Assembly: GCA_963701025.1 (NCBI GenBank)
Contig: OY969557.1
Span: 106,405-170,404, forward strand
DNA length: 64,000 bases
Source of the DNA: an uncultured bacterium
Lineage (GTDB): Bacteria > Patescibacteriota > Minisyncoccia > Phycocordibacterales > PALSA-1337
Reading direction: 5' to 3'
Below are positions 1,827 through 30,306 of this stretch, one piece after another (the stretch's first letter is position 1; every line of letters starts with the position of its first letter). Below the pieces are notes generated by a model that had not been told where the DNA came from, did no database searches, and saw only the letters and a list, made by a program, of their open reading frames with translations. The position numbers were made by a program, and so were the translations under genes.

Positions 1827-3521
1827 TCATTGTGTTTCCGTAGAACAGATGTGCCGGTATGTAATACCGGAGTTCGGCGCTTTCAGTCCGGATACTTCAG
1901 GCGGTAACCCGCTTGTCGCACCGTTCGCCATTGATTGTTTATCGGTTATTCTCGCTGATCGGTGTTGCATCATGAGTCCAAACGCAACGAGCGAGGCGAT
2001 AACGAGACACATTGCGGTTATGAGGCCATACCGTCGCCAGGCCATCGGTACTGCCGTTGATGCTTCCGCCGCCTGTGTCCGAACGACCGGCGCTTGTACC
2101 GTTGGCGGTTGAGTTGTCACAGGTGCCGCCGGAGTAACGGCTTTCAGGCGTTCCTCCAGCCGTGAGACCACGGTATCCGCCAGCGCGGCGTCCCGGCGGT
2201 TTTGGCCGGAGATGAACCGTGTCAATTGTGTTTCCAAGCCCCTCATCTTCCGCCAGATGCGCAAGAGCACCCAGGCGAATCCGAATCCTCGACGGATCCT
2301 TTTCGCCGGAGCAGGTGCCGGAGCAGGCGATGGAGCCTGCGTGAGCGATCCCTGCCGCGCACAACGGTCATTGAACTCGACCATGATCTCGTGGATCTGG
2401 TCGAGGAACGCCCGATAATCGGCCCGTTCCTGCGAGGCCTCGGCACGCTCGCGTGAAGCTTCGGTGAGGCTGGTCTGAATGTCGCTGACCATTCCGGCGA
2501 ATTCTTCGCGAACCGCTTTCAGTGCCGTAGCATTTTGCCGCACGATGAGTTCCGAGCATGTTCGTCCTTGGGCCAACACGGAAACGAGGCTTTCGCTGAT
2601 CTGCGCGTGCAGGTCAACGAGCTGTTGCCCCAGACCCGTGCTGATCCGCTGTTCGATTTCGGCGGGATTGGCACGGAGCTTTTCGCGCAATTGCGAGACT
2701 TCCGAGGCCAATGCGCCTACTCCAGTCGTCAGAGCCGCATGACCCTTGGTTTGGTCGCCGATCTTCGCCGTGAGCTCGGGTAGCACTCGCGCGACCTCAT
2801 CGGTCACGACGAGCGTGCGTTTGACCAACGCCTGATAGGTTTCATTCTGGCCGGACTTTTCGCCGACGAAGGCGGTGTAATCATTGACCAAGCTTTGGAC
2901 GGTCGCGGTTATGTCCCTGATCGCCGCCGCATTTGAATCAAGATGACCATTGACGAGCTGGTTCTGCTTGGACTGCTCGCCGAGGATGGCTTTGAATTTT
3001 TCGTTGACGTCGCCGGTGATCGCCGTGGTGTTTTCGCCGAGACGACTTCCCAGCTCGTTTTTCAGCTGTTCCAGCAGTCCTGGTATTCCGGCGACTTGAG
3101 CGGATATGCCGCCCTTGCCGTCGAGGATCGCGGCGATCTTCTTGTTCTCGTCGTCAATCCAGCCGATCCAGATCCGTGTAATGTCATCTGGTGTCATGGT
3201 CAATCGGTCGGTTGTCTCAAAGCGCTGTTCCGGAGTGATGCCGTCAGCGCTTATGGTGACCTCGTATTCCCCGGGCACCAGCTCGTAGGCCTTCAGACCG
3301 TTCCGTTTAAACGAACCCAGTCTGATAGTTATTCTTCCGTCAGGTCCTTCCTCGTGCGGCATGACTTCCACTCTCTGACCGCCGAAAATGGTCTGTTCAC
3401 TGCGTTTGACGCACACGTAATGTGTGTCGGCTCCCGGTAATCGGGAGAAGACGATTTTTTCGCCATTGCACTGGTGGATGACCGGTGTGATGGGTTTTGG
3501 GGTAGGGGTAGTGTCGGACAT
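1827..3521 (-). CDS. coiled-coil protein with C-terminal transmembrane anchor (hypothetical)
   Basis: 564 aa. N-terminal beta-rich segment, about 330 aa of heptad-like A/E/Q/L-rich sequence, a PAPAPAPA linker, then a hydrophobic helix (LITAMCLVIASLVAFGLMM) near the C-terminus. First gene of an apparent 3-gene minus-strand operon. Confidence 0.5.
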   Translation of the reverse strand: MSDTTPTPKPITPVIHQCNGEKIVFSRLPGADTHYVCVKRSEQTIFGGQRVEVMPHEEGPDGRITIRLGSFKRNGLKAYELVPGEYEVTISADGITPEQRFETTDRLTMTPDDITRIWIGWIDDENKKIAAILDGKGGISAQVAGIPGLLEQLKNELGSRLGENTTAITGDVNEKFKAILGEQSKQNQLVNGHLDSNAAAIRDITATVQSLVNDYTAFVGEKSGQNETYQALVKRTLVVTDEVARVLPELTAKIGDQTKGHAALTTGVGALASEVSQLREKLRANPAEIEQRISTGLGQQLVDLHAQISESLVSVLAQGRTCSELIVRQNATALKAVREEFAGMVSDIQTSLTEASRERAEASQERADYRAFLDQIHEIMVEFNDRCARQGSLTQAPSPAPAPAPAKRIRRGFGFAWVLLRIWRKMRGLETQLTRFISGQNRRDAALADTVVSRLEERLKAVTPAAPVTTQPPTVQAPVVRTQAAEASTAVPMAWRRYGLITAMCLVIASLVAFGLMMQHRSARITDKQSMANGATSGLPPEVSGLKAPNSGITYRHICSTETQ

Positions 3522-3651: not shown

Positions 3652-3983
3652 GGTCCTACGGACCCTGTATAGGTCTCGTATTTTCTCGGGTCAAAGACCC
3701 TCGAAAATATACTCGACCTTTTCTCGTCCTCTCCCGCAAACCTCCGGTTTGCTCCGGCACAAATTCGCTTCGCTCATTTGTGTGTCTTTATGACTCCGCT
3801 CGAACCTTTTTTCAAGGACAATAGCCCTTGGCAGTCTCGTTTTAGGGTATCCCCACACCCTTCCCCACATGGGGAGGGGTATTGTTTTGAAATCATCCTT
3901 TGCTCACAAGGATTTTGTCGCCTTTTTGCGTTTCGTGCCACCCCCGACTTCGGTCGGTTTTGCCGCTCACGCGGCTGGTGGAA

Positions 3984-4068
3984 TGGTGCCGGGGAGAGGA
4001 CTCGAACCTCCAAGGATTGCTCCGCGTGGTCCTAAGCCACGTGCGTCTACCAATTTCGCCACCCCGGC
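3984..4068 (-). tRNA. tRNA-Leu (anticodon TAG), type II with long variable arm
   Basis: Reverse complement reads GCCGGGGTGGCGAAATTGGTAGACGCACGTGGCTTAGGACCACGCGGAGCAATCCTTGGAGGTTCGAGTCCTCTCCCCGGCACCA. Acceptor stem GCCGGGG/CCCCGGC, anticodon loop CTTAGGA, T-loop TTCGAGT, CCA encoded. Confidence 0.8.
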
Positions 4069-4113
4069 GATTTTTCCATTTTACACTTTACCTTTTACTA
4101 TTGCTACGTGTAT

Positions 4114-4292
4114 TTTGTGCTGCTTTTTGGACAAAGTTCGAACTTTTTTCTCTGAAAATCCCGACTCGTAGTTGCGTCTCGCTCTGCTCGACGCCAGGAG
4201 AGGGCGGACGGAAGCCTGGGGGTTTGGGGGAAAGGATTCCGTCCGCCCTCACTATTTGTTTTTGGCCGCCGCCGCGCCATTTTTTCGCGCGG
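4114..4292. repeat. repeat A: inverted copy (about 97% identical) of 7999..8178; contains a 14-bp-stem hairpin (4200..4250)
   Basis: Reverse complement of 4114..4292 aligns base by base to 7999..8178 with a few mismatches. The internal hairpin is gagggcggacgga...tccgtccgccctc around a G/C-rich loop. Confidence 0.8.
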
Positions 4293-4676: not shown

Positions 4677-5322
4677 CAAAAAGATATTTAACCCAGTGCG
4701 AGCCGTCTGTGCGGTTCAATCTTCCTTGTTGGACTAATTTCGACAAATATCTTGTTGCTGTGGCATCCGAACAGTGTAGACGGTCTTGAGCTTGTTCGTT
4801 GGTGATGGATCCTTTTTTTTGTGCTGTCAGCATGATCTTGTCCAATTTTTTCTGTCTGTTTGAACCAAGCTTGGCGTTTGCTTTGGCTAGAAGCGTGCGG
4901 ATGAAGCTGGTCTGGTTCTGTTGCGCCGACGATTGTGTCTGTGGAGATATCGGAGTCGGTGGCGTCGGCGCTGGCACAGGTGCAGATTGCACTGGAATTG
5001 GCTGGACTGGTTCAGGAGTTGGCGGCTCATCGGTTGCAGGAGTTGGTTCAGAAATCGGTTGATCATCAACCGGAGCTTCTGGCTCATTTGAGGCAGAAAT
5101 CGGCTCTTCCGGGGCGTTGCTTTCAGGCTGATTTATAGGTGGATTTTGATCTTCTACAGGAGTTGAACTAGAATCGTTTATAGGCGATTCTGGGGCCGTA
5201 GGAGGGGTATTGGCCACGTCAGAATCTGTTGTTTGGTCAGAAACTGGCTCAACTGGAGCAGGCGATGATTCTGGCGCTTGCACATCTTCAACTGGTTCGC
5301 TTGGAGTATTTTGATCGTCCAT
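4669..5322 (-). CDS. DNA-binding protein: disordered Pro/Glu-rich N-terminal region plus C-terminal winged-helix HTH
   Basis: 217 aa. The N-terminal 140 aa are low-complexity (PEPV, TPPT repeats). The C-terminal 70 aa (..ITNEQAQDRLHCSDATATRYLSKLVQQGRLNRTDG..) has the pattern of wHTH domains such as those at Fic/DeoR termini. Confidence 0.45.
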   Translation of the reverse strand: MDDQNTPSEPVEDVQAPESSPAPVEPVSDQTTDSDVANTPPTAPESPINDSSSTPVEDQNPPINQPESNAPEEPISASNEPEAPVDDQPISEPTPATDEPPTPEPVQPIPVQSAPVPAPTPPTPISPQTQSSAQQNQTSFIRTLLAKANAKLGSNRQKKLDKIMLTAQKKGSITNEQAQDRLHCSDATATRYLSKLVQQGRLNRTDGSHWVKYLFVR

Positions 5323-5429: not shown

Positions 5430-6011
5430 TTATACCTCTTTTTGGATTTTCATTTTCCAGCTATCGATATTAATGAGATCGATCTTTCCTTGCTCGTGTT
5501 GCTTCATGACTTCTTTTAACCTCGTTGATAGACGTTTGGTATTTAGTCCAGGCTTCTTGATGCCGGCGTTTGATGAAACGACATAAACTTTCGTGCCTTT
5601 CTCCACAAGTCTTTTGATCAGATAATCGAAATCGCCATCACCTGTAAATATCAAGAATTCTTTATCTGGTCCGGCATATTCCATGGCATCGACGGTCAAA
5701 TCAACATCACAATTAGATTTGTGGTTATAGCCCATACTCACAACCTCTACATTTTCTTTACCGCAAGCAATACATTTTATAGAGATCGTTTTGTCGGGCT
5801 TTTTATAAGAGAAGACCGTCCTCGTTTTTACAATGCAACCGGCTCCTTTCAGAGATTCAAATTCTTTTGCGGTTTCGTCATCTCCTTCGTCGATGCCGGA
5901 GTAGAAAAAAACTTTTTCGCATTTCCATTTCTTCGTGAGGTACGCGTAAAGCTTGTGCCAGTCAATTAGAAAGCCAAGTAGCTTGCGCGTCGTTGACGCC
6001 GTGTTCTGCAC
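5430..6011 (-). CDS. NYN-domain (LabA-like PIN-related) putative ribonuclease with inserted CxxC..C zinc-ribbon
   Basis: 193 aa. An N-terminal motif (LLGFLIDWHKLYAYL) and the C-terminal FLIFTGDGDFDYLIKRLVEKGTKVYVV match the acidic NYN/DUF88 signature. Low-GC gene. Confidence 0.5.
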   Translation of the reverse strand: MQNTASTTRKLLGFLIDWHKLYAYLTKKWKCEKVFFYSGIDEGDDETAKEFESLKGAGCIVKTRTVFSYKKPDKTISIKCIACGKENVEVVSMGYNHKSNCDVDLTVDAMEYAGPDKEFLIFTGDGDFDYLIKRLVEKGTKVYVVSSNAGIKKPGLNTKRLSTRLKEVMKQHEQGKIDLINIDSWKMKIQKEV

Positions 6012-6081
6012 GTCGATGAAAGCATAACGTTTTCTCTGGTTTGCTTGTGGACATGCGTGGTATTATACCACGGCATAGGAC

Positions 6082-6411
6082 CTATTTTCTGTTTAGAATA
6101 TTTGCTATATTTTGTTTTTCCTCCACACTTGCTGTCGTCTTTGAATTTGAGATCAAGGAAGATACAGCGCTTATTTTTGCCGCAGATGTAGGTTGTGATG
6201 ATTGCAACATTGCCGCCACCTCAGTCCGCAATTCGGCTTGAGTTTTTGGTGGAATGGTAGACGCATACCGCATTACGATAAACCAGTAGGCGAGAGCGAT
6301 TAGGATAGCTACGATTACAATAACCAAAACACTCCACAAAAAACGGTGCCGGTGATTGTGTGTCGTTGGTGATTGGGGTATTGGTTGGGGATTTAGTGAG
6401 TAGGTTGGCAT
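6082..6411 (-). CDS. hypothetical single-pass membrane protein
   Basis: 109 aa. His/Pro-rich N-terminus, then TM helice FLWSVLVIVIVAILIALAYWFIV. No family recognised. Confidence 0.35.
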   Translation of the reverse strand: MPTYSLNPQPIPQSPTTHNHRHRFLWSVLVIVIVAILIALAYWFIVMRYASTIPPKTQAELRTEVAAMLQSSQPTSAAKISAVSSLISNSKTTASVEEKQNIANILNRK

Positions 6412-8637: not shown

Positions 8638-10203
8638 ATGAACGAGAAAAAATATTTCATCTACACCAGAAAATCAACAGACACCGAAGACAAGCAGGTG
8701 AGATCACTTGCCGACCAGCTCGCAGAATTACGCGAGCTTGCGAGGAAAGAACAGTTGGAGGTTATAGACATTTTCATCGAAAAACAAACTGCCAAAATAC
8801 CTGGCAGACCTATTTTTGCTGAAATGTTGGAGAGAATTGAGAAAGGCGAGGCCTCCGGCATCCTCGCTTGGCACCCCGACAGACTCGCTCGCAACTCGGT
8901 TGATGGTGGAAAGGTTATTTATCTCGTAGATACCGGCAAAATCACAGACCTTAAATTTCCGACTTTTTGGTTCGATGCTACGCCGCAGGGAAAATTTATG
9001 CTTTCAATTTCATTTGGCCAGAGTAAATATTACGTTGACAATCTATCGGAAAACATAAAGAGAAGTTATCGTCAGAAATTGAAAAATGGACTATGGCCAC
9101 AAAGAGCTCCGGTAGGATACCTTAATGACAAAAAGACCAAGTCCATTGTCATTGATCCTGAAAAAGCTCCATTGATTAAGAAGACATTCGAGGCATACGC
9201 CACAGGCACTTATACCATCTCTAGTCTTCGTAAAACTATAGGCGATCTAGGATTGAAAGGAAACAAAGGCAAAGAACTTGCCATGTCAAATTATGAACAC
9301 ATTTTGAAAAATAACATCTATCACGGACTTCTATATTTCGGAGGTGAATTTTACGAGGGGAAACATGAACCGATTGTTTCGAGGAAACTTTTTGACACTT
9401 GCCAGGAGGTTATGAAAATAAAAAGTAAACCTCAGCATGAAGGCAGATTGAAGCCGTATGTTTATCGAGGACTATTCAAATGTGCGGAATGTGGATGTTG
9501 TCTTACAATAGAAACGCAAAAAGGCCATAACTATTTACGCTGTACAAGACGCAAAGGTCCGTGTTCGCAAAAATATGTTCGCGAGGAAGCAATGACCGAA
9601 ATGATCAAAGAAGAACTTAAAAAAGTTTCTTTGTCCGATGAAGTCGCTGATTGGCTTATTGCCAAAGTCGAAAAGGAAAAGACCGAGGATGGCGATTTAT
9701 CAAAAGATCAGATTGAGAAAGTGAAAAGTGAAATGCTTGCAATCGACGCAAAGTTAGACAAATTGATGACAGCATACTTGGAAAATGCTCTTACGTTGGA
9801 AGAATACCAGTCGGCTAAAAACAAACTCATCACTGAAAAGCAGGTTTTGAAAGACAAACTTGAAGCTTTTGGACGAAACTCGACCAATCGGTTCGAACCG
9901 GTCATAAACTTTCTAAACGACTGTAAACAAGCCAGTATTTTGGCAAACAGCACTGACACAACAAAGATCCGATCTTTTTTCCAAAAAGTCGGTTCGAACC
10001 CGCTCGTCCGCGACCGCGCCCTCATTTTTTCGCCCCGTGCGCCTTTTGCATTTGTTCCCGCAATTCCCAAAACGGCCAACAAAAATGCGGGCGGGGCGGA
10101 AGGGGGGTTTCAGGGGGGAATTCCGCCCCGCTCTCCACTTGGTATTTGCATTTCGCCTTTTTCGGACGATTTTCAGTTTTCCGCGAATTTGTGCGCCCAG
10201 TAG
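8638..10203 (+). CDS. large serine recombinase (resolvase catalytic domain, recombinase domain, zinc-ribbon/coiled-coil)
   Basis: N-terminus IYTRKSTDTEDKQVRSLADQ (catalytic Ser motif), LAWHPDRLARN, a central recombinase domain, Cys cluster CAECGCCL...C..C, and a C-terminal coiled coil. The last 55 aa are read through repeat C into the tRNA-Lys 3' end, so the true stop may be earlier. Confidence 0.85.
   Translation: MNEKKYFIYTRKSTDTEDKQVRSLADQLAELRELARKEQLEVIDIFIEKQTAKIPGRPIFAEMLERIEKGEASGILAWHPDRLARNSVDGGKVIYLVDTGKITDLKFPTFWFDATPQGKFMLSISFGQSKYYVDNLSENIKRSYRQKLKNGLWPQRAPVGYLNDKKTKSIVIDPEKAPLIKKTFEAYATGTYTISSLRKTIGDLGLKGNKGKELAMSNYEHILKNNIYHGLLYFGGEFYEGKHEPIVSRKLFDTCQEVMKIKSKPQHEGRLKPYVYRGLFKCAECGCCLTIETQKGHNYLRCTRRKGPCSQKYVREEAMTEMIKEELKKVSLSDEVADWLIAKVEKEKTEDGDLSKDQIEKVKSEMLAIDAKLDKLMTAYLENALTLEEYQSAKNKLITEKQVLKDKLEAFGRNSTNRFEPVINFLNDCKQASILANSTDTTKIRSFFQKVGSNPLVRDRALIFSPRAPFAFVPAIPKTANKNAGGAEGGFQGGIPPRSPLGICISPFSDDFQFSANLCAQ
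10025..10194. repeat. repeat C: inverted copy of 8171..8343, abutting the tRNA-Lys 3' end
   Basis: Base-by-base alignment to rc of B2. Hairpin gcggggcggaa...ttccgccccgc at about 10090..10130. Its last 8 bp (atttgtgc) are the same 8 bp that open repeat A. Confidence 0.8.
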
Positions 10204-10264
10204 GGATCGAACCTACGACCTTATCCTTAAGAGGGATCTGCTCTACCAGCTGAGCTATGGGCGC
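10192..10264 (-). tRNA. tRNA-Lys (anticodon CTT)
   Basis: Reverse complement GCGCCCATAGCTCAGCTGGTAGAGCAGATCCCTCTTAAGGATAAGGTCGTAGGTTCGATCCCTACTGGGCGCA. D-arm GCTC/GAGC, anticodon loop CTCTTAA, T-loop TTCGATC. CCA not encoded. Confidence 0.75.
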
Positions 10265-22634: not shown

Positions 22635-23735
22635 ATGCCTATGAACGGACGAATAAAAGTCGGTCTTGTCGGTTGCGGTTATTGGGGGCCAAAGCTGGCC
22701 CGTAATTTCCGGGACCTTCCGGAACAATGCGAGCTTAACATGCTCTGCGACGCGAATGCGTGTAGTATTGACGCCATGCGGTGCGACCATCCAGACGTCG
22801 AAATGACCACGGATTTCGGGGTTGTCCTCAACGGGGCCAACCTCGACGCCATAGTCATCGCCACGCCGGTTCACACGCACTACCCGCTGGCGGTGCGCGC
22901 GCTCAAATCCGGGAAGCACGTCTTCATCGAAAAGCCTATGGCTGATTCTTCGAAGAATTGCGAGGAATTGATCGCCATCGCCGAACAGAAGGGCCTAGTG
23001 CTCATGGTGGGGCACACCTTCCTATACTCGCCGGCTGTAAGGCGGATCAAGGAGATCATCGAGAGCGGCGAGATCGGCAGGGTCACGAGCATAACCGCCG
23101 ATCGTCTTAACCTGGGAAATTTCCAGAAAGACATCAATGTCGCCTGGGACCTGGCGCCCCACGACATCTCGATCGCCTTGTCCATCATGGGCGATATGCC
23201 GATCGCGGTAAGTTGCACCGGCTTCGCCCATGTCACGCAGGGGATCGAAGACCTCACAACGGTTTCATTGGAATTCTCCGGCGGTCGTTCGGCTATAATC
23301 AAGAGCAGCTGGCGGCATCCGGTGAAAGTCCGCGATACGGTCATCATCGGAGACAAAGGGATGATCGTCTACAACGACGTTCCTACCCGTCTCTCGGAGA
23401 AAATCAAGATCTTCGACGCGCGCGTCGAGCGGGTCAGTCGTCCCGGCACGCTGGGATTTGGGTACAGGTACCAGCGTCCCAGTGAAGCCCGGCTCGCGAC
23501 GGTCAGCGCCGAAGAGCCACTCAATGAGGTGTGTCGGCATTTCTTGGACTGCATCAGGCATGGCAAGAAGCCGCTCTCCGACGGCGATCAGGGTCTGCGG
23601 GTAGTCCGCATCCTTGAGGCGGCGACGAGGTCGTTGCGGGAGGATGGCAGGATGGTACGCCTTGATATGGAGCCGAGACGGTACAGTCTTCACCACTATG
23701 AATACGCGCAGACGGAAAGCCCCCTTGTTATTTGA
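22635..23735 (+). CDS. Gfo/Idh/MocA-family NAD(P)-dependent oxidoreductase
   Basis: N-terminal Rossmann motif KVGLVGCGYWG and FIEKPMA (EKP motif). 366 aa with a typical C-terminal alpha/beta domain. Confidence 0.7.
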   Translation: MPMNGRIKVGLVGCGYWGPKLARNFRDLPEQCELNMLCDANACSIDAMRCDHPDVEMTTDFGVVLNGANLDAIVIATPVHTHYPLAVRALKSGKHVFIEKPMADSSKNCEELIAIAEQKGLVLMVGHTFLYSPAVRRIKEIIESGEIGRVTSITADRLNLGNFQKDINVAWDLAPHDISIALSIMGDMPIAVSCTGFAHVTQGIEDLTTVSLEFSGGRSAIIKSSWRHPVKVRDTVIIGDKGMIVYNDVPTRLSEKIKIFDARVERVSRPGTLGFGYRYQRPSEARLATVSAEEPLNEVCRHFLDCIRHGKKPLSDGDQGLRVVRILEAATRSLREDGRMVRLDMEPRRYSLHHYEYAQTESPLVI

Positions 23736-23855: not shown

Positions 23856-24362
23856 ATGTCTGATGTGAAAGTGAAGAGGATCATCATCGCCCGTCACGGC
23901 TCCGGTTGGACGGATCTCGACGAGTTCGGTCTACGACAGACGGAAAAGTTAGCCCTAGCCGTCAAAGCCAGCCTGAACGGAGGCGGCGTCGCTCTCTTGT
24001 CGTCAACAGCTCCCAAAGCTGAACAGAGCGCCGAGATATTCTCGGGCATACTGGATATCCCATTCGAGAGGCACGAGCTTCTCTGGGCGGGGTTCGATAG
24101 CCCTGGTCGGAACAGACGGAACGGCGACCCGGTCGGTCTTACCGCGGCGCTCCAGCTCATAGAAGCTTCGGAGATGGAAACGGTCATCTTGATAACTCAT
24201 CTGGAGTACACTCGGGAGCTTCCCCGCGCTGTCAAGGACAGACTCCTTGGGGATGGAGCCGATTTTCCGTTTGAAGCGTTGAAAGCCGGGCAGGCCTGGG
24301 TTATCGATTGCGAGGCCAAGACCTGCACCAGATTGCCCGAAGCCGTCGGATACGAAATATAA
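23856..24362 (+). CDS. histidine-phosphatase superfamily protein (SixA/PGAM-like)
   Basis: IIIARHGSGW (RHG catalytic motif) and a downstream His region (LITHLEY). 168 aa. Confidence 0.5.
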   Translation: MSDVKVKRIIIARHGSGWTDLDEFGLRQTEKLALAVKASLNGGGVALLSSTAPKAEQSAEIFSGILDIPFERHELLWAGFDSPGRNRRNGDPVGLTAALQLIEASEMETVILITHLEYTRELPRAVKDRLLGDGADFPFEALKAGQAWVIDCEAKTCTRLPEAVGYEI

Positions 24363-25220: not shown

Positions 25221-25928
25221 TTACACCCGCATCTCGACCTTGAATCCAAGTTCCTCAAAGAATCCATAAGCGTGTGAGAGGTCCTTGAACAGGAACGGCC
25301 TGACGTCGAACCCGCGTTCCTTTGCCCAACTGGCATAACGATCCGACATGATCGGCGAAGCGTTGACATCGCATAAGAGCTCGATGTCAGGAGTGATCCA
25401 TATGCCGCCGTTCTTGGCCAGCAGACGGGCCACATTCCTGGCGATGGCCACTTTGTCCGGCCAGCTTATATAGCGCAGGAGGCCTTCGCAGGTCACGGCC
25501 ACTGGCATGCAGTTAAAATGCTGGCACGCTCGATCGAAATCTTTCTCATCTGACGCGGTGCCTTGCTCGAGAATGAGGTTCGAAGGCCATGTAGCTTTGG
25601 CATCCACGATTTGCTTCAGGACATTGGCTTTCAATGCGCTGTTGCCTGGCAGGTCGAGCTCTACATAGTTGCCATTGTCCTCGTTCATGGACCAGATGAG
25701 GCCTCTGGGCGACATGCCGGCCGCTAATTCGAGGACTTGCGTGATACCTCGTTCCTTGATGACGACGTCGGTCATCTTGTAACGGGTCTCAAAGTAGGGG
25801 ACGATGACGGGCCAACTGTCCACTCTGTCTTTGTCGTTCGGTCGGAGCGGTCCTTGTTGGGCCATAAGTATATCCCATATCCTTGCGGAGAACGGGATAT
25901 CCGTAAAGGCGGCGCGGATATATGCCAC
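25221..25928 (-). CDS. putative class I SAM-dependent methyltransferase (LCM/TcmP-like)
   Basis: Motif I-like TQVLELAAGMSPRGL followed by an acidic residue. Weak family assignment. Confidence 0.4.
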   Translation of the reverse strand: MAYIRAAFTDIPFSARIWDILMAQQGPLRPNDKDRVDSWPVIVPYFETRYKMTDVVIKERGITQVLELAAGMSPRGLIWSMNEDNGNYVELDLPGNSALKANVLKQIVDAKATWPSNLILEQGTASDEKDFDRACQHFNCMPVAVTCEGLLRYISWPDKVAIARNVARLLAKNGGIWITPDIELLCDVNASPIMSDRYASWAKERGFDVRPFLFKDLSHAYGFFEELGFKVEMRV

Positions 25929-25961
25929 TCTTTTCTATGTCGATATAAGGCTTAAACATCA

Positions 25962-26566
25962 GGCTTAAACTGGAAATATGCCCCTCACCCTCATCTTCGA
26001 AGCTCACGGCACGACATTCGACAATGAAGCCCATCTATCGTCGGGCTGGAATGATATAGCCCTGTCGCCGCTCGGGGAAAAGCAGAGCCGCGAGATGGGG
26101 GAACGCTACAAGGACGACCATTTCGACGCCATATTCACTTCGGACCTGGAGCGCGCATACCGCTCGGCTGAGATCGGCTTTGGTGACAAGTGGCCGATTA
26201 TCCACGACAAGCGGCTACGAGAATGCGACTACGGCGATATGACGCAGAAGCCTTCCGCTATGGTCGACGCCGAGAAGCCAAAGCGTCTCCATGAGCCCTT
26301 TCCGAACGGGGAAAGCTATGACGAGACTTATGTGCGCATGAAGTCATTCCTGGATGATTTGCGACGCGATTATGCAGGCAAGCCCAGTGGAGGCCCTGCT
26401 GGCCCTAGGGTCATGGTCATCGGCAACGCTTTGCATGACCCTGCTGGGTCAGCCACAGGGCGACGCAGTATACCATAGAGCATATGTTGAATGGGGTGCC
26501 GTATGAGAAGCTCGTCACTAGTCATTCCAGACGGGCAGCCGGGGTGGGTGTATGAGGTGAAATAAG
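25962..26566. repeat. direct duplication, copy 1 (histidine-phosphatase gene plus upstream leader), degraded
   Basis: Aligns to 27577..28132 including the leader ggcttaaactggaaatatgccc. Carries an insertion and a frameshift near the 3' end. Confidence 0.7.
25978..26478 (+). pseudogene. histidine-phosphatase (PGAM-like) paralog with frameshifted C-terminus
   Basis: Identical to 27593..28132 over about 140 aa, then diverges (..AGKPSGGPAGPRVMVIGNALHDPAGSATGRRSIP) because of an insertion and an indel. The intact C-terminal residues are visible out of frame. Confidence 0.45.
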
Positions 26567-26574
26567 TCAGCTCT

Positions 26575-27225
26575 TTAATTTTTGCTCTGCTTTCGACTCC
26601 TGATTTTCTTTTCTTTTTGAAGGGTGTCCAGAGATCCTCTAAGAATGAGTTTCTTTAGTGATTCATAATCTCCATATTTATCTACTTGGCATAATGCATC
26701 GATGTACTTATCCTTGTCTTCGGCTTCAAACCGGACTTCAGTTGGCGGAAAATTGAATCTGCGCAGAACCACGTTGGTCATAAGACGCGCGGTTCGACCG
26801 TTTGCTTCAGTAAAAGGATGGATAGCGACTATACTATGTTGCACCCAAGCCGCAAGGCCGAGCACATCATCGATAAATTTCTTTCTAGCCGTTTTACTGT
26901 GCGGATGAGTATGAATCGGAATAAGCGATACTCGGTGAGACATGTTTTTTCCGAATTCATGTGCTATTTCCATTACTCTAGAACCAAGGGGCGGCTCGAC
27001 GCATTTAAGCTTCATTATGTCTTGACCGGCTATGCGTAGCTTCCCAGCTGCTTCTGGAGAAGCGTATTCAAGTATGCATTTATTAAGCTCTAGGACGACA
27101 TTCAAGTTGATCTCTCGATCACTTGTGCCTATATCTTTGGACAAAGCAATAGCTTTCCAAAAACCTTTTGCTTCGCGGTCTTCCAAGTCTACTTTATGAT
27201 GAGGCCGCTCGAATTCATTATGCAT
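26575..27225 (-). CDS. Fic/DOC-family protein (AMPylase-type toxin domain)
   Basis: Fic motif IHPFTEANGRTARL (HPFx[D/E]GNGRxxR with G to A in the middle). 216 aa. Confidence 0.75.
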   Translation of the reverse strand: MHNEFERPHHKVDLEDREAKGFWKAIALSKDIGTSDREINLNVVLELNKCILEYASPEAAGKLRIAGQDIMKLKCVEPPLGSRVMEIAHEFGKNMSHRVSLIPIHTHPHSKTARKKFIDDVLGLAAWVQHSIVAIHPFTEANGRTARLMTNVVLRRFNFPPTEVRFEAEDKDKYIDALCQVDKYGDYESLKKLILRGSLDTLQKEKKIRSRKQSKN

Positions 27226-27508
27226 GTATAGCTTTCTCTATTCGTCCGCTTTCGTTAAGATGTGAACCTTCGATTTTGCTCGAATTATAAAGATGATCTA
27301 TTGCTACACTGTGTTCAAATTTAGCCCTTTCGACAGCAGAAAACTCTGGCAGTTTATTAACTGCGTTTTGTACGTTTATAAAACGGTCTATTAAATCACC
27401 CCTAGTTGAGGTTGATCTTTTAAGGGTTGTCCTTTTCATATGATTATTATACCACCCATATGACGTACTAGGTGCGGATAAGTGGCAGATGTCCAACATT
27501 ATAGGCAT
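27218..27508 (-). CDS. small protein carrying a Fic inhibitory-helix motif (SxxxEG); antitoxin-like partner or split N-terminus of the Fic protein
   Basis: ..HLYNSSKIEGSHLNE contains [S/T]xxxE[G/N]. Its stop overlaps the Fic start in ATGCATAA (8-nt overlap, different frames). The true start may be the internal Met (MKRTTLK). Confidence 0.5.
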   Translation of the reverse strand: MPIMLDICHLSAPSTSYGWYNNHMKRTTLKRSTSTRGDLIDRFINVQNAVNKLPEFSAVERAKFEHSVAIDHLYNSSKIEGSHLNESGRIEKAIHA

Positions 27509-27576
27509 TTTTTGATTATGTCAAGCATAATAAACTGTGTACAAATGAAAACATGGATTTACTTATTTCCACATAG

Positions 27577-28132
27577 GGCTTAAACTGGAAATATGCCCAA
27601 TCCCCTCACCCTCATCTTCGAAGCTCACGGCACAACGTTCGACAATGAAGCCCACCTCTCGTCAGGCTGGAATGATATAGCATTGTCGCCACTCGGGGAA
27701 AAGCAGAGCCGCGAGATGGGCGAGCGCTACAAGGATGACCATTTCGACGCCATATTCACTTCGGACCTGGAGCGCGCGTACCGCTCGGCCGAGATCGGCT
27801 TTGGTAACCGCTGGCCTATCATCCGCGACAAGCGCCTACGCGAGTGCCATTACGGCGACCTGACACAAAAGCCTTCCGCCATGGTGGACGCCGAGAAGCC
27901 AAAGCGTCTCCATGAGCCCTTTCCGAACGGGGAAAGCTATGACCAGACTTATGTGCGCATGAAGTCATTCCTGGACGATTTGCGACGCGATTATGCCGGC
28001 AAGAGGGTCATGGTCATCGGCCACAGGGCGACGCAGTATGCCATAGAGCATATGTTGAATGGGGTGCCGTATGAGAAGCTCGTCACTAATCATTTCAAAT
28101 GGCAGCCGGGGTGGGTGTATGAGGTGAAATAA
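27577..28132. repeat. direct duplication, copy 2 (intact histidine-phosphatase gene)
   Basis: See 25962..26566. Confidence 0.7.
27593..28132 (+). CDS. histidine-phosphatase superfamily (PGAM-like) protein, RHG replaced by AHG
   Basis: LIFEAHGTTFDNEAHLSSGWNDIALSPLGEKQ..FDAIFTSDLERAYRSAEI follows the PGAM N-terminal pattern with Ala in place of the catalytic Arg. 179 aa. Confidence 0.5.
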   Translation: MPNPLTLIFEAHGTTFDNEAHLSSGWNDIALSPLGEKQSREMGERYKDDHFDAIFTSDLERAYRSAEIGFGNRWPIIRDKRLRECHYGDLTQKPSAMVDAEKPKRLHEPFPNGESYDQTYVRMKSFLDDLRRDYAGKRVMVIGHRATQYAIEHMLNGVPYEKLVTNHFKWQPGWVYEVK

Positions 28133-28136
28133 AAAA

Positions 28137-28155
28137 GGTAGCAACTGTTGCTACC
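28137..28155 (+). terminator. hairpin GGTAGCAAC-TG-TTGCTACC flanked by A-tract and T-rich sequence (possible bidirectional terminator)
   Basis: Starts 5 nt after the stop of 27593..28132. Confidence 0.35.
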
Positions 28156-28492
28156 CTTGTGTCATCTTGATTAGCCTATGCAGTAAGTGACTTCTCGCCC
28201 CCTTGAGGTTCATTGTTCGGTGTGAAGTCTGGCGGTCCTGAACAATTGTCGCCTTGGGCGCGCATGGTAGGTTTCCGTCCCCGGATGTAATCTTCCATGG
28301 AAGTGCCTTTTGTGCATTCAAATCCGTTGCCGCCTACGACGAGAAAAATGCAAGTCGCTGGCCCTTCCCCGAATTTGCATCGTTTCTTGGCAGTGTCATT
28401 GCTCATTGGTGTCGGTTGGTTCATATGTCCTTTCGTTCAGTTTGTTGGTGCTGCTAGACTCTACATTACATTTATTGTATTATTTGTCAATA

Positions 28493-29203
28493 ATGTCCGA
28501 CATCGACCTCTACAACAAATCTCCCAAGGAATATGAGCATCTACAGCACATGCGACCTGATTATGTTGGTGCAATTGGAGAATTTCTAGATTTAGCCACT
28601 AAATACTTGAAAGACAAAAAAGATGTCACGATCGCTGATTTTTGCTGTGGCACGGGTGAGAACACCGAGCGTTTGGTTGGAAAGATGAAGATTAGGAGGG
28701 CTACTCTGATAGATATAAACAAAGAATTCCTTCGAATAGTCATGGAGAAGAAGTTCGGCATCGAAGAGGTGATTCCGGTCGTTTCGGATATTTTAGAGGC
28801 TCAAGTACCGAATGATAATGACGCCGTCATCTCAATGTTCGCATATCATCATGTCACCGATGACCGAAAGGCAAAATATATCTCTGCAGCCAAAGCGGCA
28901 CTCAAGTCTGGAGGTATCCTTCTTCTAGGGGAGATATATAGTCCAGACAAGCAGACAACACTCGACTATTATGAGCATCTAATTCGTTCTATCCCTGGCG
29001 CAGAGCAAAATGTTCCGCTCCAGACATTTCTCCGCCAGACGGCACAAAGTGATGATTTTGAATATAAAGTCTCGCGCGCATTTGCGCATGAACAGCTCAA
29101 GAGGGCCGGATTCGAGCTCATTGAAGCAAAGAAGATTTGGCCTACAGATGATACTTTTCCGATTGATATTGGGACTTTCGTAGAGGTGTGGAGGGTGAAA
29201 TAG
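28493..29203 (+). CDS. class I SAM-dependent methyltransferase
   Basis: Motif I IADFCCGTGENT, motif II-like DAVISMFAYHH and post-motif GGILLLGE. The ORF-track start at 28310 runs upstream; the Met at 28493 (MSDIDLYNK) is the likely start. Confidence 0.65.
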   Translation: MSDIDLYNKSPKEYEHLQHMRPDYVGAIGEFLDLATKYLKDKKDVTIADFCCGTGENTERLVGKMKIRRATLIDINKEFLRIVMEKKFGIEEVIPVVSDILEAQVPNDNDAVISMFAYHHVTDDRKAKYISAAKAALKSGGILLLGEIYSPDKQTTLDYYEHLIRSIPGAEQNVPLQTFLRQTAQSDDFEYKVSRAFAHEQLKRAGFELIEAKKIWPTDDTFPIDIGTFVEVWRVK

Positions 29204-29272
29204 ATATACCTACAACATGGACACGTTTACATTAGTAGTTTACATTTTCTAAAAATATTGTAATATATAGAT

Positions 29273-29593
29273 ATGAAATTGGTTATAAAAAAAGAACTAA
29301 TAAATGGACAATTTAATCTGCATCTATCAATTGCAGACATAAATGCCGAGGAAAGAGATAGACTAATAAAGTTTGGCTCCCCAAGTATTTCTATTGCCCC
29401 TCGATTTACTATTCATCAACTGAAATATGCAGATGCCATTCCTCTACACGAGATAAATGATAGTTTTTCTTTTAATAACGAAAAGGAAGCGATGGTTTTT
29501 CTTGATTTGGTAAAGAATCGGGTGAGTAAGGCAATCACAGATTTAAAATCTAAAGAAGACAAGTTTACTAATCGTGAAGAATATGAGTTCTAA
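29273..29593 (+). CDS. hypothetical protein (low-GC cassette, gene 1)
   Basis: 106 aa, Lys/Glu-rich, no domain recognised. GC is far below the neighbours. A TTTACA-16-TAATAT promoter-like element sits at 29239..29266. Confidence 0.4.
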   Translation: MKLVIKKELINGQFNLHLSIADINAEERDRLIKFGSPSISIAPRFTIHQLKYADAIPLHEINDSFSFNNEKEAMVFLDLVKNRVSKAITDLKSKEDKFTNREEYEF

Positions 29594-30269
29594 TGGTTTA
29601 CAATTTAATACTTCTAAGGTTCTAGGCAGATTAGTTTTTGTAATAGTTTTTGTTGGTATGGTATATGCTGCAATTAACATACCTCAACAGTTTAATACTT
29701 ATGCGAATAGCGTCTTAGTGATAGTTACAGCAATCTACGCATATCTAACATATGAACTTTTATTAAGTACACGTCAAGGTAGAAGCATGCCTTATGTTAA
29801 TGTCGAGTTTATTTTAGTAAACAAACTTGATGATGATTTTCTCAAAAAGAACAGTTCCTTTTTAAGGCCGACTGAAAAATTAAATAAGTTGAGGGAAGAC
29901 CTTAAGAGAACAGAATATAAAATGAATGCTGTTTTTGTTAAGGTTGAAAATATATCAGAGACAATTGCAGTGGACGTTAATTTTGAGACAAACTATGCGA
30001 AGCGTTCACTTTCTGATGAAACACATGCAACTACAAAAACAATTTCCTTTGGTGAATTAAAGAAAGGTGAATCCATAGTAGATATTGTTGATATTTTCGA
30101 GCTACCTTCTGAGAACGATTACTTTAAGATACGTTATTGTACAGTTGAATTTAATGACATTAACGGTAGATATGTGAAAGATAAGCCTATGAAAAATGAC
30201 TTCTCATCATCTGCAAAAGTGACAAATCTCCTAGATGGTATTGGTCTGGCTTTTACATTGAAAGCATAA
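29574..30269 (+). CDS. hypothetical 2-TM membrane protein (low-GC cassette, gene 2)
   Basis: 231 aa. Two hydrophobic helices near the N-terminus, then a 160-aa soluble domain. Overlaps gene 1 by 20 nt. Confidence 0.45.
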   Translation: MKNMSSNGLQFNTSKVLGRLVFVIVFVGMVYAAINIPQQFNTYANSVLVIVTAIYAYLTYELLLSTRQGRSMPYVNVEFILVNKLDDDFLKKNSSFLRPTEKLNKLREDLKRTEYKMNAVFVKVENISETIAVDVNFETNYAKRSLSDETHATTKTISFGELKKGESIVDIVDIFELPSENDYFKIRYCTVEFNDINGRYVKDKPMKNDFSSSAKVTNLLDGIGLAFTLKA

Positions 30270-30306
30270 TTTTTGCATCACAACTTTATAGGCGTATACT
30301 TGGGTT

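Follow-up and report, generated by a model that had tools for sequence, protein, structure and literature searches.

The window analysed here is a stretch of 64,000 nucleotides (nt) of contig OY969557.1, to which all coordinates refer unless another locus is named; the comparison set comprises loci L001-L097 and proteins P0153, P0165 and P0238. Within the window, a gene encoding a Fic protein and a smaller gene, whose product we regard as a putative antitoxin, occupy a low-GC segment between two same-strand copies of a histidine phosphatase gene. The features of this region, each with its evidence, are the following:

25221-25928, minus strand: methyltransferase-like gene, left neighbour of phosphatase copy 1 (open reading frame [ORF] listing)
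25956-26565, plus strand: phosphatase copy 1, a His_Phos_1 pseudogene of 610 nt with its ATG at 25978 (pairwise alignment, Pfam, multiple alignment with relatives)
26566-27570, no strand assigned: low-GC cargo of 1005 nt between the phosphatase copies (composition; bounds from the pairwise alignment)
26575-27225, minus strand: Fic gene, 216 amino acids (aa) (Pfam PF02661, PDB sequence matches, homologues, AlphaFold2, Foldseek)
27218-27439, minus strand: putative antitoxin gene, 73 aa from the likely ATG at 27439 (homologue starts, stand-alone clusters, hhalign)
27571-28132, plus strand: phosphatase copy 2, intact, with an ORF of 179 aa at 27593-28132 (Pfam PF00300; 80 orthologous loci)
28134-28158, no strand assigned: terminator-like hairpin directly 3' of copy 2 (sequence scan)

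The two phosphatase copies form a direct repeat that starts about 22 nt 5' of the ATG and ends exactly at the TAA stop codon in both, and a gapped pairwise alignment showed that 515 of 556 aligned positions (92.6%) are identical; a repeat this long and this identical cannot have arisen by chance. The cargo has a GC content of 40.4%, compared with 52.4% for the whole window and 55% for copy 2, and the Fic stop codon lies 9 nt past that of copy 1. A previous inspection of the letters (the sequence-only reading) had described a low-GC module of about 1 kb between direct repeats, one a degraded and the other an intact copy of an AHG-type phosphatase gene. This is confirmed here, with some coordinates slightly corrected (repeats of 610 and 562 nt, insert of 1005 nt): copy 1 carries a premature stop at 26476-26478, and copy 2 encodes a complete protein. 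An independent Logan assembly (L010, ERR11718638) was 100% identical to positions 26536-27631, which span both junctions and the overlap of the Fic and antitoxin genes.

The Fic protein matched Pfam PF02661 with 38.6 bits (cut-off, 24 bits), as expected of a Fic/Fido domain, and its motif HPFTEANGRTAR reads H136-P-F-T-E-A-N-G-R-T-A-R147, with H, E, N, R and R all present. Its ORF begins past the position of the inhibitory helix and encodes none of its own. The small ORF upstream has a maximal extent of 27218-27508 (minus strand, 96 aa), and its residues S76-S-K-I-E80-G81 fit the inhibitory motif (S/T)xxxE(G/N). Both the SxxxEG motif in a small ORF 5' of the Fic gene and an overlap of 8 nt between the two had been proposed before, and both hold: the overlap is ATGCATAA (27218-27225), in which the antitoxin TAA overlaps the Fic ATG, and it is unchanged in the Logan assembly. 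Class I Fic proteins are defined by an inhibitory helix supplied in trans (PMC3667792, PMC5651007). This is the architecture found in the window, where the Fic protein lacks an (S/T)xxxE(G/N) helix and the upstream 73-aa gene supplies SSKIEG (invariant in five aligned loci), whereas in a class II protein the helix and the core would not be two ORFs in different frames. The suggested FicT/FicA-like two-gene organization was thus verified, and by organization the pair is a genuine module of the toxin-antitoxin (TA) kind, with the layout of a type II TA system: compact and co-directional, the antitoxin gene upstream and overlapping, in varied genomic contexts.

It had also been considered that the two ORFs might be one ordinary class II Fic gene that a recent frameshift or sequencing error had cut in two and, hence, a pseudogene or an artefact. 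The pair is indeed collinear with class II Fic proteins, and deletion of a single A from GAGAAAGC would join both frames. However, all-frame translation showed a TAG in the Fic frame four codons 5' of the Fic ATG, and a single frameshift is possible only within about 20 nt. Moreover, a search of 5.8 billion proteins with an artificially fused antitoxin-Fic query retrieved 28 Fic homologues (32-100% identity) that covered only the Fic part of the query, all of 196-220 aa and all but one of 208-220 aa. Alignment of 22 of them showed conservation of the start methionine, of an N-terminus of the form MHxxFxRP and of HPF(C/T/S)(E/D)(A/G)NGR. The DNA around five Fic homologues contained in each case a gene of 73-86 aa directly upstream, overlapping the Fic gene by 8, 17 or 26 nt depending on the locus; in all, six further loci of unrelated context retain such an overlapping pair. 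The small proteins of these other loci are 42-51% identical to that of the window and share with it, in an alignment of five loci, an invariant H-L-Y-x-S-S-x-x-E-G...L...R...A-I-H, and the homologues end at a conserved AIHA-stop. In addition, a profile search with the antitoxin yielded 119 clusters at 90% identity (62-118 aa), all labelled "hypothetical" and none of them containing a Fic domain. The split is therefore kept throughout the family and reproduced in an independent assembly, which refutes a broken gene; we consider that explanation extremely improbable, and a genuine, conserved two-gene split Fic module very probable.

Elsewhere, the pair was found beside a tyrosine integrase (L001), an ABC transporter (L003), ychF (L006 and L009) and HicAB (L008), and the neighbouring tyrosine integrase or HicAB indicates mobility. 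In L001 the module follows the integrase and a duplicated 43-nt tRNA-like segment (2211-2253 and 2371-2413 of that locus). In L008, direct repeats of 62 nt (3688-3749 and 4737-4798 of that locus; 90% identical) enclose HicAB, which lies just 3' of the Fic module. No direct repeats flank the module in L003, L006 and L009, and repeat flanking is therefore a trait of the window locus and not of the Fic module.

We believe that the true start of the antitoxin is likely the ATG at 27439, since it matches the starts of the homologues and gives a protein of 73 aa. The inhibitory glutamate is then E57 (E80 in the numbering of the 96-aa ORF), within the conserved motif HLYxSS(K/R)hEG. An extended -10-like box, TGGTATAAT, can be read directly at 27446-27454 (minus strand), 6 nt 5' of this ATG, and it suggests a leaderless antitoxin mRNA. 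Farther 5' there is a TTGACA/TATAAT pair (27524-27498) with a spacer of 15 nt. A promoter consensus scan listed neither hexamer pair, its spacer range of 16-18 nt excluding the latter.

To place the pair among the Fic classes, a profile of the Fic protein was searched exhaustively against 1.84 billion cluster representatives. At E≤1e-30 there were 24 matches, most of about 210-220 aa and starting at the Fic N-terminus; two of these 24, P0153 (284 aa) and P0165 (279 aa), had about 68 additional N-terminal residues. The sequence of P0153 (...KLASLPPLSVPDAIALEYTTLLRHLYYSSRREGIQ...IDGAIYDS-MFGPQEFKRPENE...) corresponds to the antitoxin followed directly by the Fic protein in one chain, and hhalign placed the antitoxin profile on its residues 6-63 (58 columns, probability 95%), with the Fic core beginning at residue 69. 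The same comparison with a more distant fused protein, P0238 (331 aa), gave 60 columns (residues 8-67, probability 95%) and a Fic core from residue 74, while with the class II Fic of L012 (371 aa, unrelated) only the 12-residue motif was aligned, without significance. Because the antitoxin is homologous to, and collinear with, the N-termini of the fused relatives, we conclude that a single-chain Fic of class II type (FICD-like) was split and that the split became fixed in evolution; by architecture the pair is class I. The sequence-only reading had left a choice between class I and class II; the class I architecture stood, but not the plain either/or, since the pair is an ancient fixed split of a class II-type Fic, as the 58-60 aligned columns of the fused relatives show. 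The module looks functional and belongs to a family specific to Patescibacteria, and its antitoxin family had been unannotated until now.

The motifs of the two fused proteins nearest to the window's Fic are degenerate. In P0153 the Fic motif reads RPFTDGNGR, with the catalytic histidine replaced by arginine, and in P0165 it reads HPFQDGNLR, with LSKLDN at the inhibitory motif; these fused forms may be inactive or regulated differently. The unrelated class II Fic of L012 (3947-5062 of that locus, minus strand; SARIEG, HPFEDGNGRTGR) lies with an NYN gene just upstream of the phosphatase.

The closest PDB sequence matches of the Fic core were FICD/FIC-1 and BtFic, all of class II. An AlphaFold2 model of the Fic protein alone, built on 22 homologues, had a mean confidence (pLDDT, predicted local distance difference test) of 88.9, and with it Foldseek ranked FICD/HYPE and FIC-1 first (template modelling score, 0.70; E 4.5e-8 for FICD), then BtFic, and then the class I Bep proteins and the class III EfFic and NmFic. 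The NCBIfam models VbhT, NmFic, SoFic and Doc all scored far below their cut-offs. With the VbhT model the score was 15.3 bits against a cut-off of 800, and the curated models do not place the protein in the VbhT/VbhA or FicT/FicA families; nor is it a Doc protein by TIGR01550 (19 bits against 38.65), its motif having NGR instead of the NKR of Doc.

The glutamate of the inhibitory helix is known to block productive ATP binding in Fic enzymes, and the free Fic AMPylates its target (PMC3667792). If VbhA/VbhT, FicA/FicT and class II Fic proteins are a guide, the antitoxin, whose gene would be translationally coupled through the 8-nt overlap to that of the 216-aa FICD-like Fic AMP-transferase, is predicted to reach with its glutamate into the Fic ATP site and to impose a non-productive orientation on ATP. 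Once free, the Fic protein would AMPylate an essential target, and the pair would work as a type II TA or addiction module, possibly with a role in defence. If the glutamate has this predicted inhibitory role, the antitoxin should bind the Fic protein and an E-to-G change should relieve inhibition. We consider it probable that the pair acts as a TA-type inhibited AMPylase. Several points weigh against this. No antitoxin family of Pfam or NCBIfam was matched by the small protein, and a PDB sequence search with it, both as a single sequence and as a profile, gave nothing significant. Also, the Fic motif has alanine in place of the canonical first glycine (EANGR), both residues occurring within the family. 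The alternative A or G at this position is part of the broader Fido consensus.

On the other hand, the pair might not be an addiction module but a two-subunit enzyme, in which the glutamate-bearing subunit toggles between AMPylation and deAMPylation as in FICD, or else a phage-defence (abortive infection) system. The closest structures, FICD and FIC-1, would fit such a role, and so would the matches of the Fic protein to the PADLOC models PDC-S04 (E 1.8e-13) and SoFic (E 1.7e-11), although these families are only candidates for defence. The cargo next to the phosphatase of relatives is defence-like (NYN, DUF2726, HATPase_c with DUF4325), and in L006 and L009 the module shares one position, 5' of ychF, which points to its stable vertical inheritance. 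Against these observations, the compact and overlapping antitoxin-toxin order, the low GC content and the scattered contexts are typical of type II TA systems, and we therefore judge a regulatory or defence role to be unlikely as the alternative to a TA-type inhibited AMPylase.

The origin of the arrangement has to be sought in the phosphatase copies. The product of copy 2 matched Pfam PF00300 (His_Phos_1) with an E value of 2.7e-31 and keeps both catalytic histidines (in AHG and GHRAT), as in branch 1 of the histidine phosphatase superfamily. The arginine of the RHG motif is replaced throughout the family (AHG in 77, SHG in 5, PHG in 1 and VHG in 1 of 84 sequences), with both catalytic histidines retained, and this AHG-type family is very widely conserved across Patescibacteria. 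With respect to copy 2, copy 1 shows a 6-nt deletion after 25980 and insertions of 24 nt (26383-26406), 29 nt (26423-26451) and 1 nt (near 26530). Its truncated ORF of 166 aa still matches PF00300 (E 6.6e-27), but the 29-nt insertion destroys the GHRAT region and brings in the premature stop, and copy 1 is therefore a pseudogene. The longest runs of identity between the copies measure 57 nt (26266-26322 and 27887-27943), 48 nt and 32 nt; the last is the 3' end, 26534-26565 being 100% identical to 28101-28132. In both copies a -10-like TAAACT sits 6 nt 5' of the ATG, and no hairpin comparable to that behind copy 2 follows copy 1.

The 24- and 29-nt insertions were considered as copies of a repeated element and this was ruled out, both being unique in the window. 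The 29-nt insertion creates a GC-rich palindrome (AGGGTCATG...CATGACCCT), and the hairpin that the copy 1 insertions form is not unusual (z = -1.8). The phosphatase remnant of L011, the closest relative, likewise contains a perfect 20-nt palindrome (GATCCGCCAGCTGGCGGATC, at about 4053-4072 of that locus), pseudogene copies thus bearing small GC-rich insertions that form palindromes.

Over 134 in-frame codons, the two copies differ by 0.39 substitutions per synonymous site (dS) and 0.024 per nonsynonymous site (dN), for a dN/dS of 0.06. These values are not those of a fresh duplication of the resident gene; they indicate that both copies remained working genes over almost the whole of their divergence and that the disabling insertions and deletions came late. 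Insertion of the module with target duplication, as previously proposed, is accordingly not supported: the copies are only 92.6% identical, with this dS and under strong purifying selection.

A protein scan with the phosphatase, in which each species was represented by one genome (GTDB), yielded 80 loci (57-95% aa identity), mostly in metagenome-assembled genomes of Patescibacteria/Paceibacteria type, some bearing generic or other labels. Synteny mapping disclosed a common backbone, tRNA-Trp ... (HhH-GPD glycosylase) ... phosphatase ... RarA ... tRNA-Leu(CAA), with variable spacers, and in L026 the phosphatase and RarA genes are directly adjacent. Neither a second full-length phosphatase copy nor the Fic module of the window was found in any of these 80 species-level relatives. 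A single copy being the norm, the arrangement of the window is derived, and the proposed foreign origin of the module, as cargo at a locus that otherwise has one phosphatase copy, is supported.

In L011 the phosphatase gene has 93% nt identity to that of the window and the flanks 72-86%, which suggests transfer, although the genes are too few to claim it; the contig ends inside the phosphatase gene. The order in this locus is a 43-nt copy of the phosphatase promoter with a NUDIX gene, a phosphatase 3' remnant of about 100 nt, an NYN gene, an unknown gene and the intact phosphatase. The 43-nt repeat is perfect (3306-3348 and 5950-5992 of that locus) and consists of the promoter-like TTGTTATATAGTTTGTCAATC plus ATGA, before the NUDIX gene and before the phosphatase. 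The NUDIX gene appears to replace the body of the left phosphatase precisely at the start codon. Multiple alignment showed that the variant TCCAGACGGG, immediately 5' of the 32-nt core of copy 1, occurs elsewhere only in the L011 remnant. This change (TTCAAAT-GG to TCCAGACGGG) is derived and uniquely shared, and the left copy was therefore common to two lineages with differing cargo. A 3' variant specific to copy 1, TCCAGACGGGCAGCCGGGGTGGG, had zero matches in a metagenome scan. A finding that relatives carry the same tandem genes without Fic had been named as one that would speak against insertion. L011 realizes it in part, for it has left-copy remnants and an intact copy and no Fic, but the cargo between them is different.

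We then looked for the same pattern with a metagenome scan for the conserved phosphatase 3' end and a self-search of every locus. In four loci (L012, L059/L096, L091 and L097), cargo lies between the phosphatase gene and a same-strand fragment of its 3' end. The cargo is HATPase_c and DUF4325 in L012 (57-nt fragment, downstream), NYN and an M23 peptidase in L059/L096 (about 40 nt) and a kinase-like gene and DUF2726 in L097, where a 33-nt fragment supplies the stop codon of the DUF2726 gene; in L091 a fragment of at least 79 nt lies upstream of the gene. Isolated 3' fragments of about 40 nt were found on the short contigs L092, L093 and L095. The repeated segment ends at the stop codon plus no more than 7 nt wherever this can be read (window, L011 and L091), while the length of the fragment varies from 33 to 610 nt. 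None of 86 loci has tandem phosphatase copies without cargo between them. A mirror of this pattern was found at the other conserved gene: in L042 (3998-6131 of that locus) the promoter and 5' end of RarA are present in triplicate (3998-4127, 4959-5039 and 5994-6131; 77-89% identity), the first two copies each preceding a gene of about 0.7-0.8 kb of unassigned family. NYN genes adjoin the phosphatase, or lie one gene off, in L011, L012, L096 and L097.

Cargo and phosphatase duplication are thus recurrently coupled, and this fits the entry, by a single crossover, of DNA carrying a diverged copy. In such a Campbell-type event, DNA bearing a diverged phosphatase copy or fragment together with the Fic cargo would recombine with the resident phosphatase, yielding gene-cargo-gene, and the redundant left copy would then decay by insertions and deletions. 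The locus, with its conserved phosphatase in the interval from tRNA-Trp to RarA, is read as a recombination hot spot, and we give about even odds to an origin of this kind there, of which the window would be the least decayed example. What tells against it is that no donor with a phosphatase adjoining this Fic module was found, and that no recombinase lies beside the locus or within 15 kb, the nearest, a serine recombinase, being at a distance of 16 kb. Copies 1 and 2 and the gene of L011 are about equally distant from one another, in a star-like relation (20, 15 and 17 private sites) that does not single out a donor copy; in a mosaic test of the copies against the L011 gene, the private sites were interspersed and no crossover breakpoint was visible. 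The lesion shared with L011, moreover, suggests that the duplication is older than the Fic cargo and independent of it. This last point, with cargo that differs between the two lineages and a dN/dS that speaks for two copies functional for long, would agree with a tandem duplication in an ancestor, both copies being kept, the Fic module and the cargo of relatives being inserted separately at the junction later, and copy 1 decaying. Yet no cargo-free tandem survives among the 86 loci, the cargo is always exactly at the junction, right after the stop codon, and the same architecture at the RarA 5' fragments of L042 argues for one coupled mechanism. A duplication that preceded the cargo therefore seems somewhat doubtful to us.

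A transposon-like or integrase-driven element with target-site duplication or att repeats was also weighed. The last 32 nt of the copies are identical, and similar cores occur elsewhere, including isolated fragments of about 40 nt of the same 3' end in other genomes, four of which begin at TTTCAAATGG; furthermore, the Fic module of L001 adjoins a tyrosine integrase. These four coinciding starts, however, came from an exact 22-mer search and reflect ascertainment bias, the left bounds of the 3' fragments in fact ranging over 33-610 nt across loci. The insert has neither terminal inverted repeats nor a transposase or integrase, and the length (562-610 nt) and divergence of the repeats, together with these absences, exclude a target duplication of the transposase type. 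Integrase-mediated att recombination keeps some probability through the identical 32-nt core; on the whole, we consider an element of either sort very unlikely. A broader version of the single-crossover origin can be proposed, in which the phosphatase 3' end and the RarA 5' end would serve as portable homology cores for recombinase-less cassettes of 1-1.6 kb (TA, NYN, DUF2726, NUDIX) that loop out as circles between the duplicated cores and re-enter related genomes by single crossover, an integron-like economy run on homologous recombination with Fic as the stabiliser of one cassette; this is speculative and quite unlikely.

As for the persistence of the arrangement, excision by homologous recombination between the copies is mechanically possible, because runs of identity of the lengths given above exist. 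Such lengths exceed the usual minimum for RecA-dependent exchange. If the crossover fell upstream of 26383, the Fic module and all lesions would be lost and a single intact, chimeric phosphatase would be left; if it fell in the 3' blocks, nothing but the broken phosphatase gene would remain. Should the module be addictive, selection would act against both deletions, as an addiction module between direct repeats would oppose its loss by looping out, and addiction may plausibly explain why the arrangement has persisted. Neither an empty site nor a circular junction was found by exact-protein look-ups with the intact phosphatase and with the ORF of copy 1, or by the metagenome scan for TCCAGACGGGCAGCCGGGGTGGG, all of which were empty.

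Other features of the window deserve mention. The serine recombinase (8638-10203) is large and of low GC content (43%), with Resolvase, Recombinase and Zn_ribbon_recom domains, and its 3' end overlaps a tRNA-Lys gene on the opposite strand (10191-10264), where it probably marks another integrated element. Between copy 2 and RarA there is a second low-GC patch (28160-30300, 38% GC) with an S-adenosylmethionine (SAM) methyltransferase gene at about 28484-29203, which matched the PADLOC mad2 model (E 1.8e-17), and two ORFs (29273-29593 and 29574-30269) without a family match. In L016 and L017, genes homologous to that of the methyltransferase (61-62% aa identity) are found on the upstream, not the downstream, side of the phosphatase. 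Finally, an ORF of 168 aa (23856-24362) has an RHG motif in its N-terminal IIIARHGSGW and no Pfam match at E≤0.01; it may encode a divergent SixA-like histidine phosphatase. This ORF and the adjacent one of 366 aa (22635-23735) are absent from the tRNA-Trp-to-phosphatase interval of the relatives.

Taken together, a split Fic module with predicted inhibition in trans and an origin by recombination is in our view the best explanation of the locus, with a probability of roughly 0.7. The family is new and had not been annotated before, but the kind of system is known. The pair provides a clean natural example of a class II Fic turned by gene fission into a class I-style TA pair, and the presence of fused and split forms within one family connects two Fic classes commonly regarded as separate solutions. 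With the pair, an antitoxin family and a Fic toxin family are defined in Patescibacteria, which cannot grow alone and whose TA and defence repertoire is poorly known. If the pattern of gene, cargo and gene fragment is general, it would show how these tiny genomes gain and lose genes without dedicated mobile-element machinery.

TA cassettes stabilise repeat-flanked gene arrays, as in the Vibrio superintegron. An addiction module between direct repeats would penalise recombinational deletion at the window locus in the same way, but here an integron integrase and attC sites are both absent, and the stabilising effect is inferred. The class II Fic proteins (FICD/HYPE, Caenorhabditis elegans FIC-1, BtFic 3CUC and SoFic) are the best matches in sequence and fold and are collinear with the pair in N-terminal helix and core; they differ in that the helix of the window is a separate polypeptide throughout the family and in that the pair lacks the accessory tetratricopeptide repeat (TPR) or winged helix-turn-helix (wHTH) domains. 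Among class I systems, FicT enzymes modify GyrB and ParE. As in VbhT/VbhA of Bartonella schoenbuchensis and FicT/FicA of Escherichia coli (Engel 2012; PMC3667792, PMC5033356), a small upstream gene provides the (S/T)xxxE(G/N) helix in trans, the gene order is antitoxin-toxin, and the HxFx(D/E)(G/A)NGRxxR motif of the Fic protein is complete, while a helix of its own is lacking. In contrast to those systems, the window pair has no detectable sequence relationship to them, the motif is at the C-terminal end of the small protein, and the Fic core is FICD-like. On a mobile element in Campylobacter fetus, small, family-specific inhibitor genes overlap fic genes, fti3 and fic3 by 8 bp and fti4 and fic4 by 15 bp, in a manner similar to that seen here; Fti3, however, was described as unrelated to known Fic antitoxins (PMC5651007), whereas the small protein of the window has the canonical inhibitory motif. 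With regard to the arrangement, the minimal mobile elements of Neisseria and Campbell-type integration (PMC1797815, PMC3787668) offer the closest parallel, in that different cassettes occupy one site between conserved genes and are exchanged by homologous recombination without mobility genes. The window differs from the Neisseria elements in that the cargo has a copy of the conserved gene, or of its 3' end, on either side, which replacement by a double crossover would not produce but a single crossover with circular DNA would.

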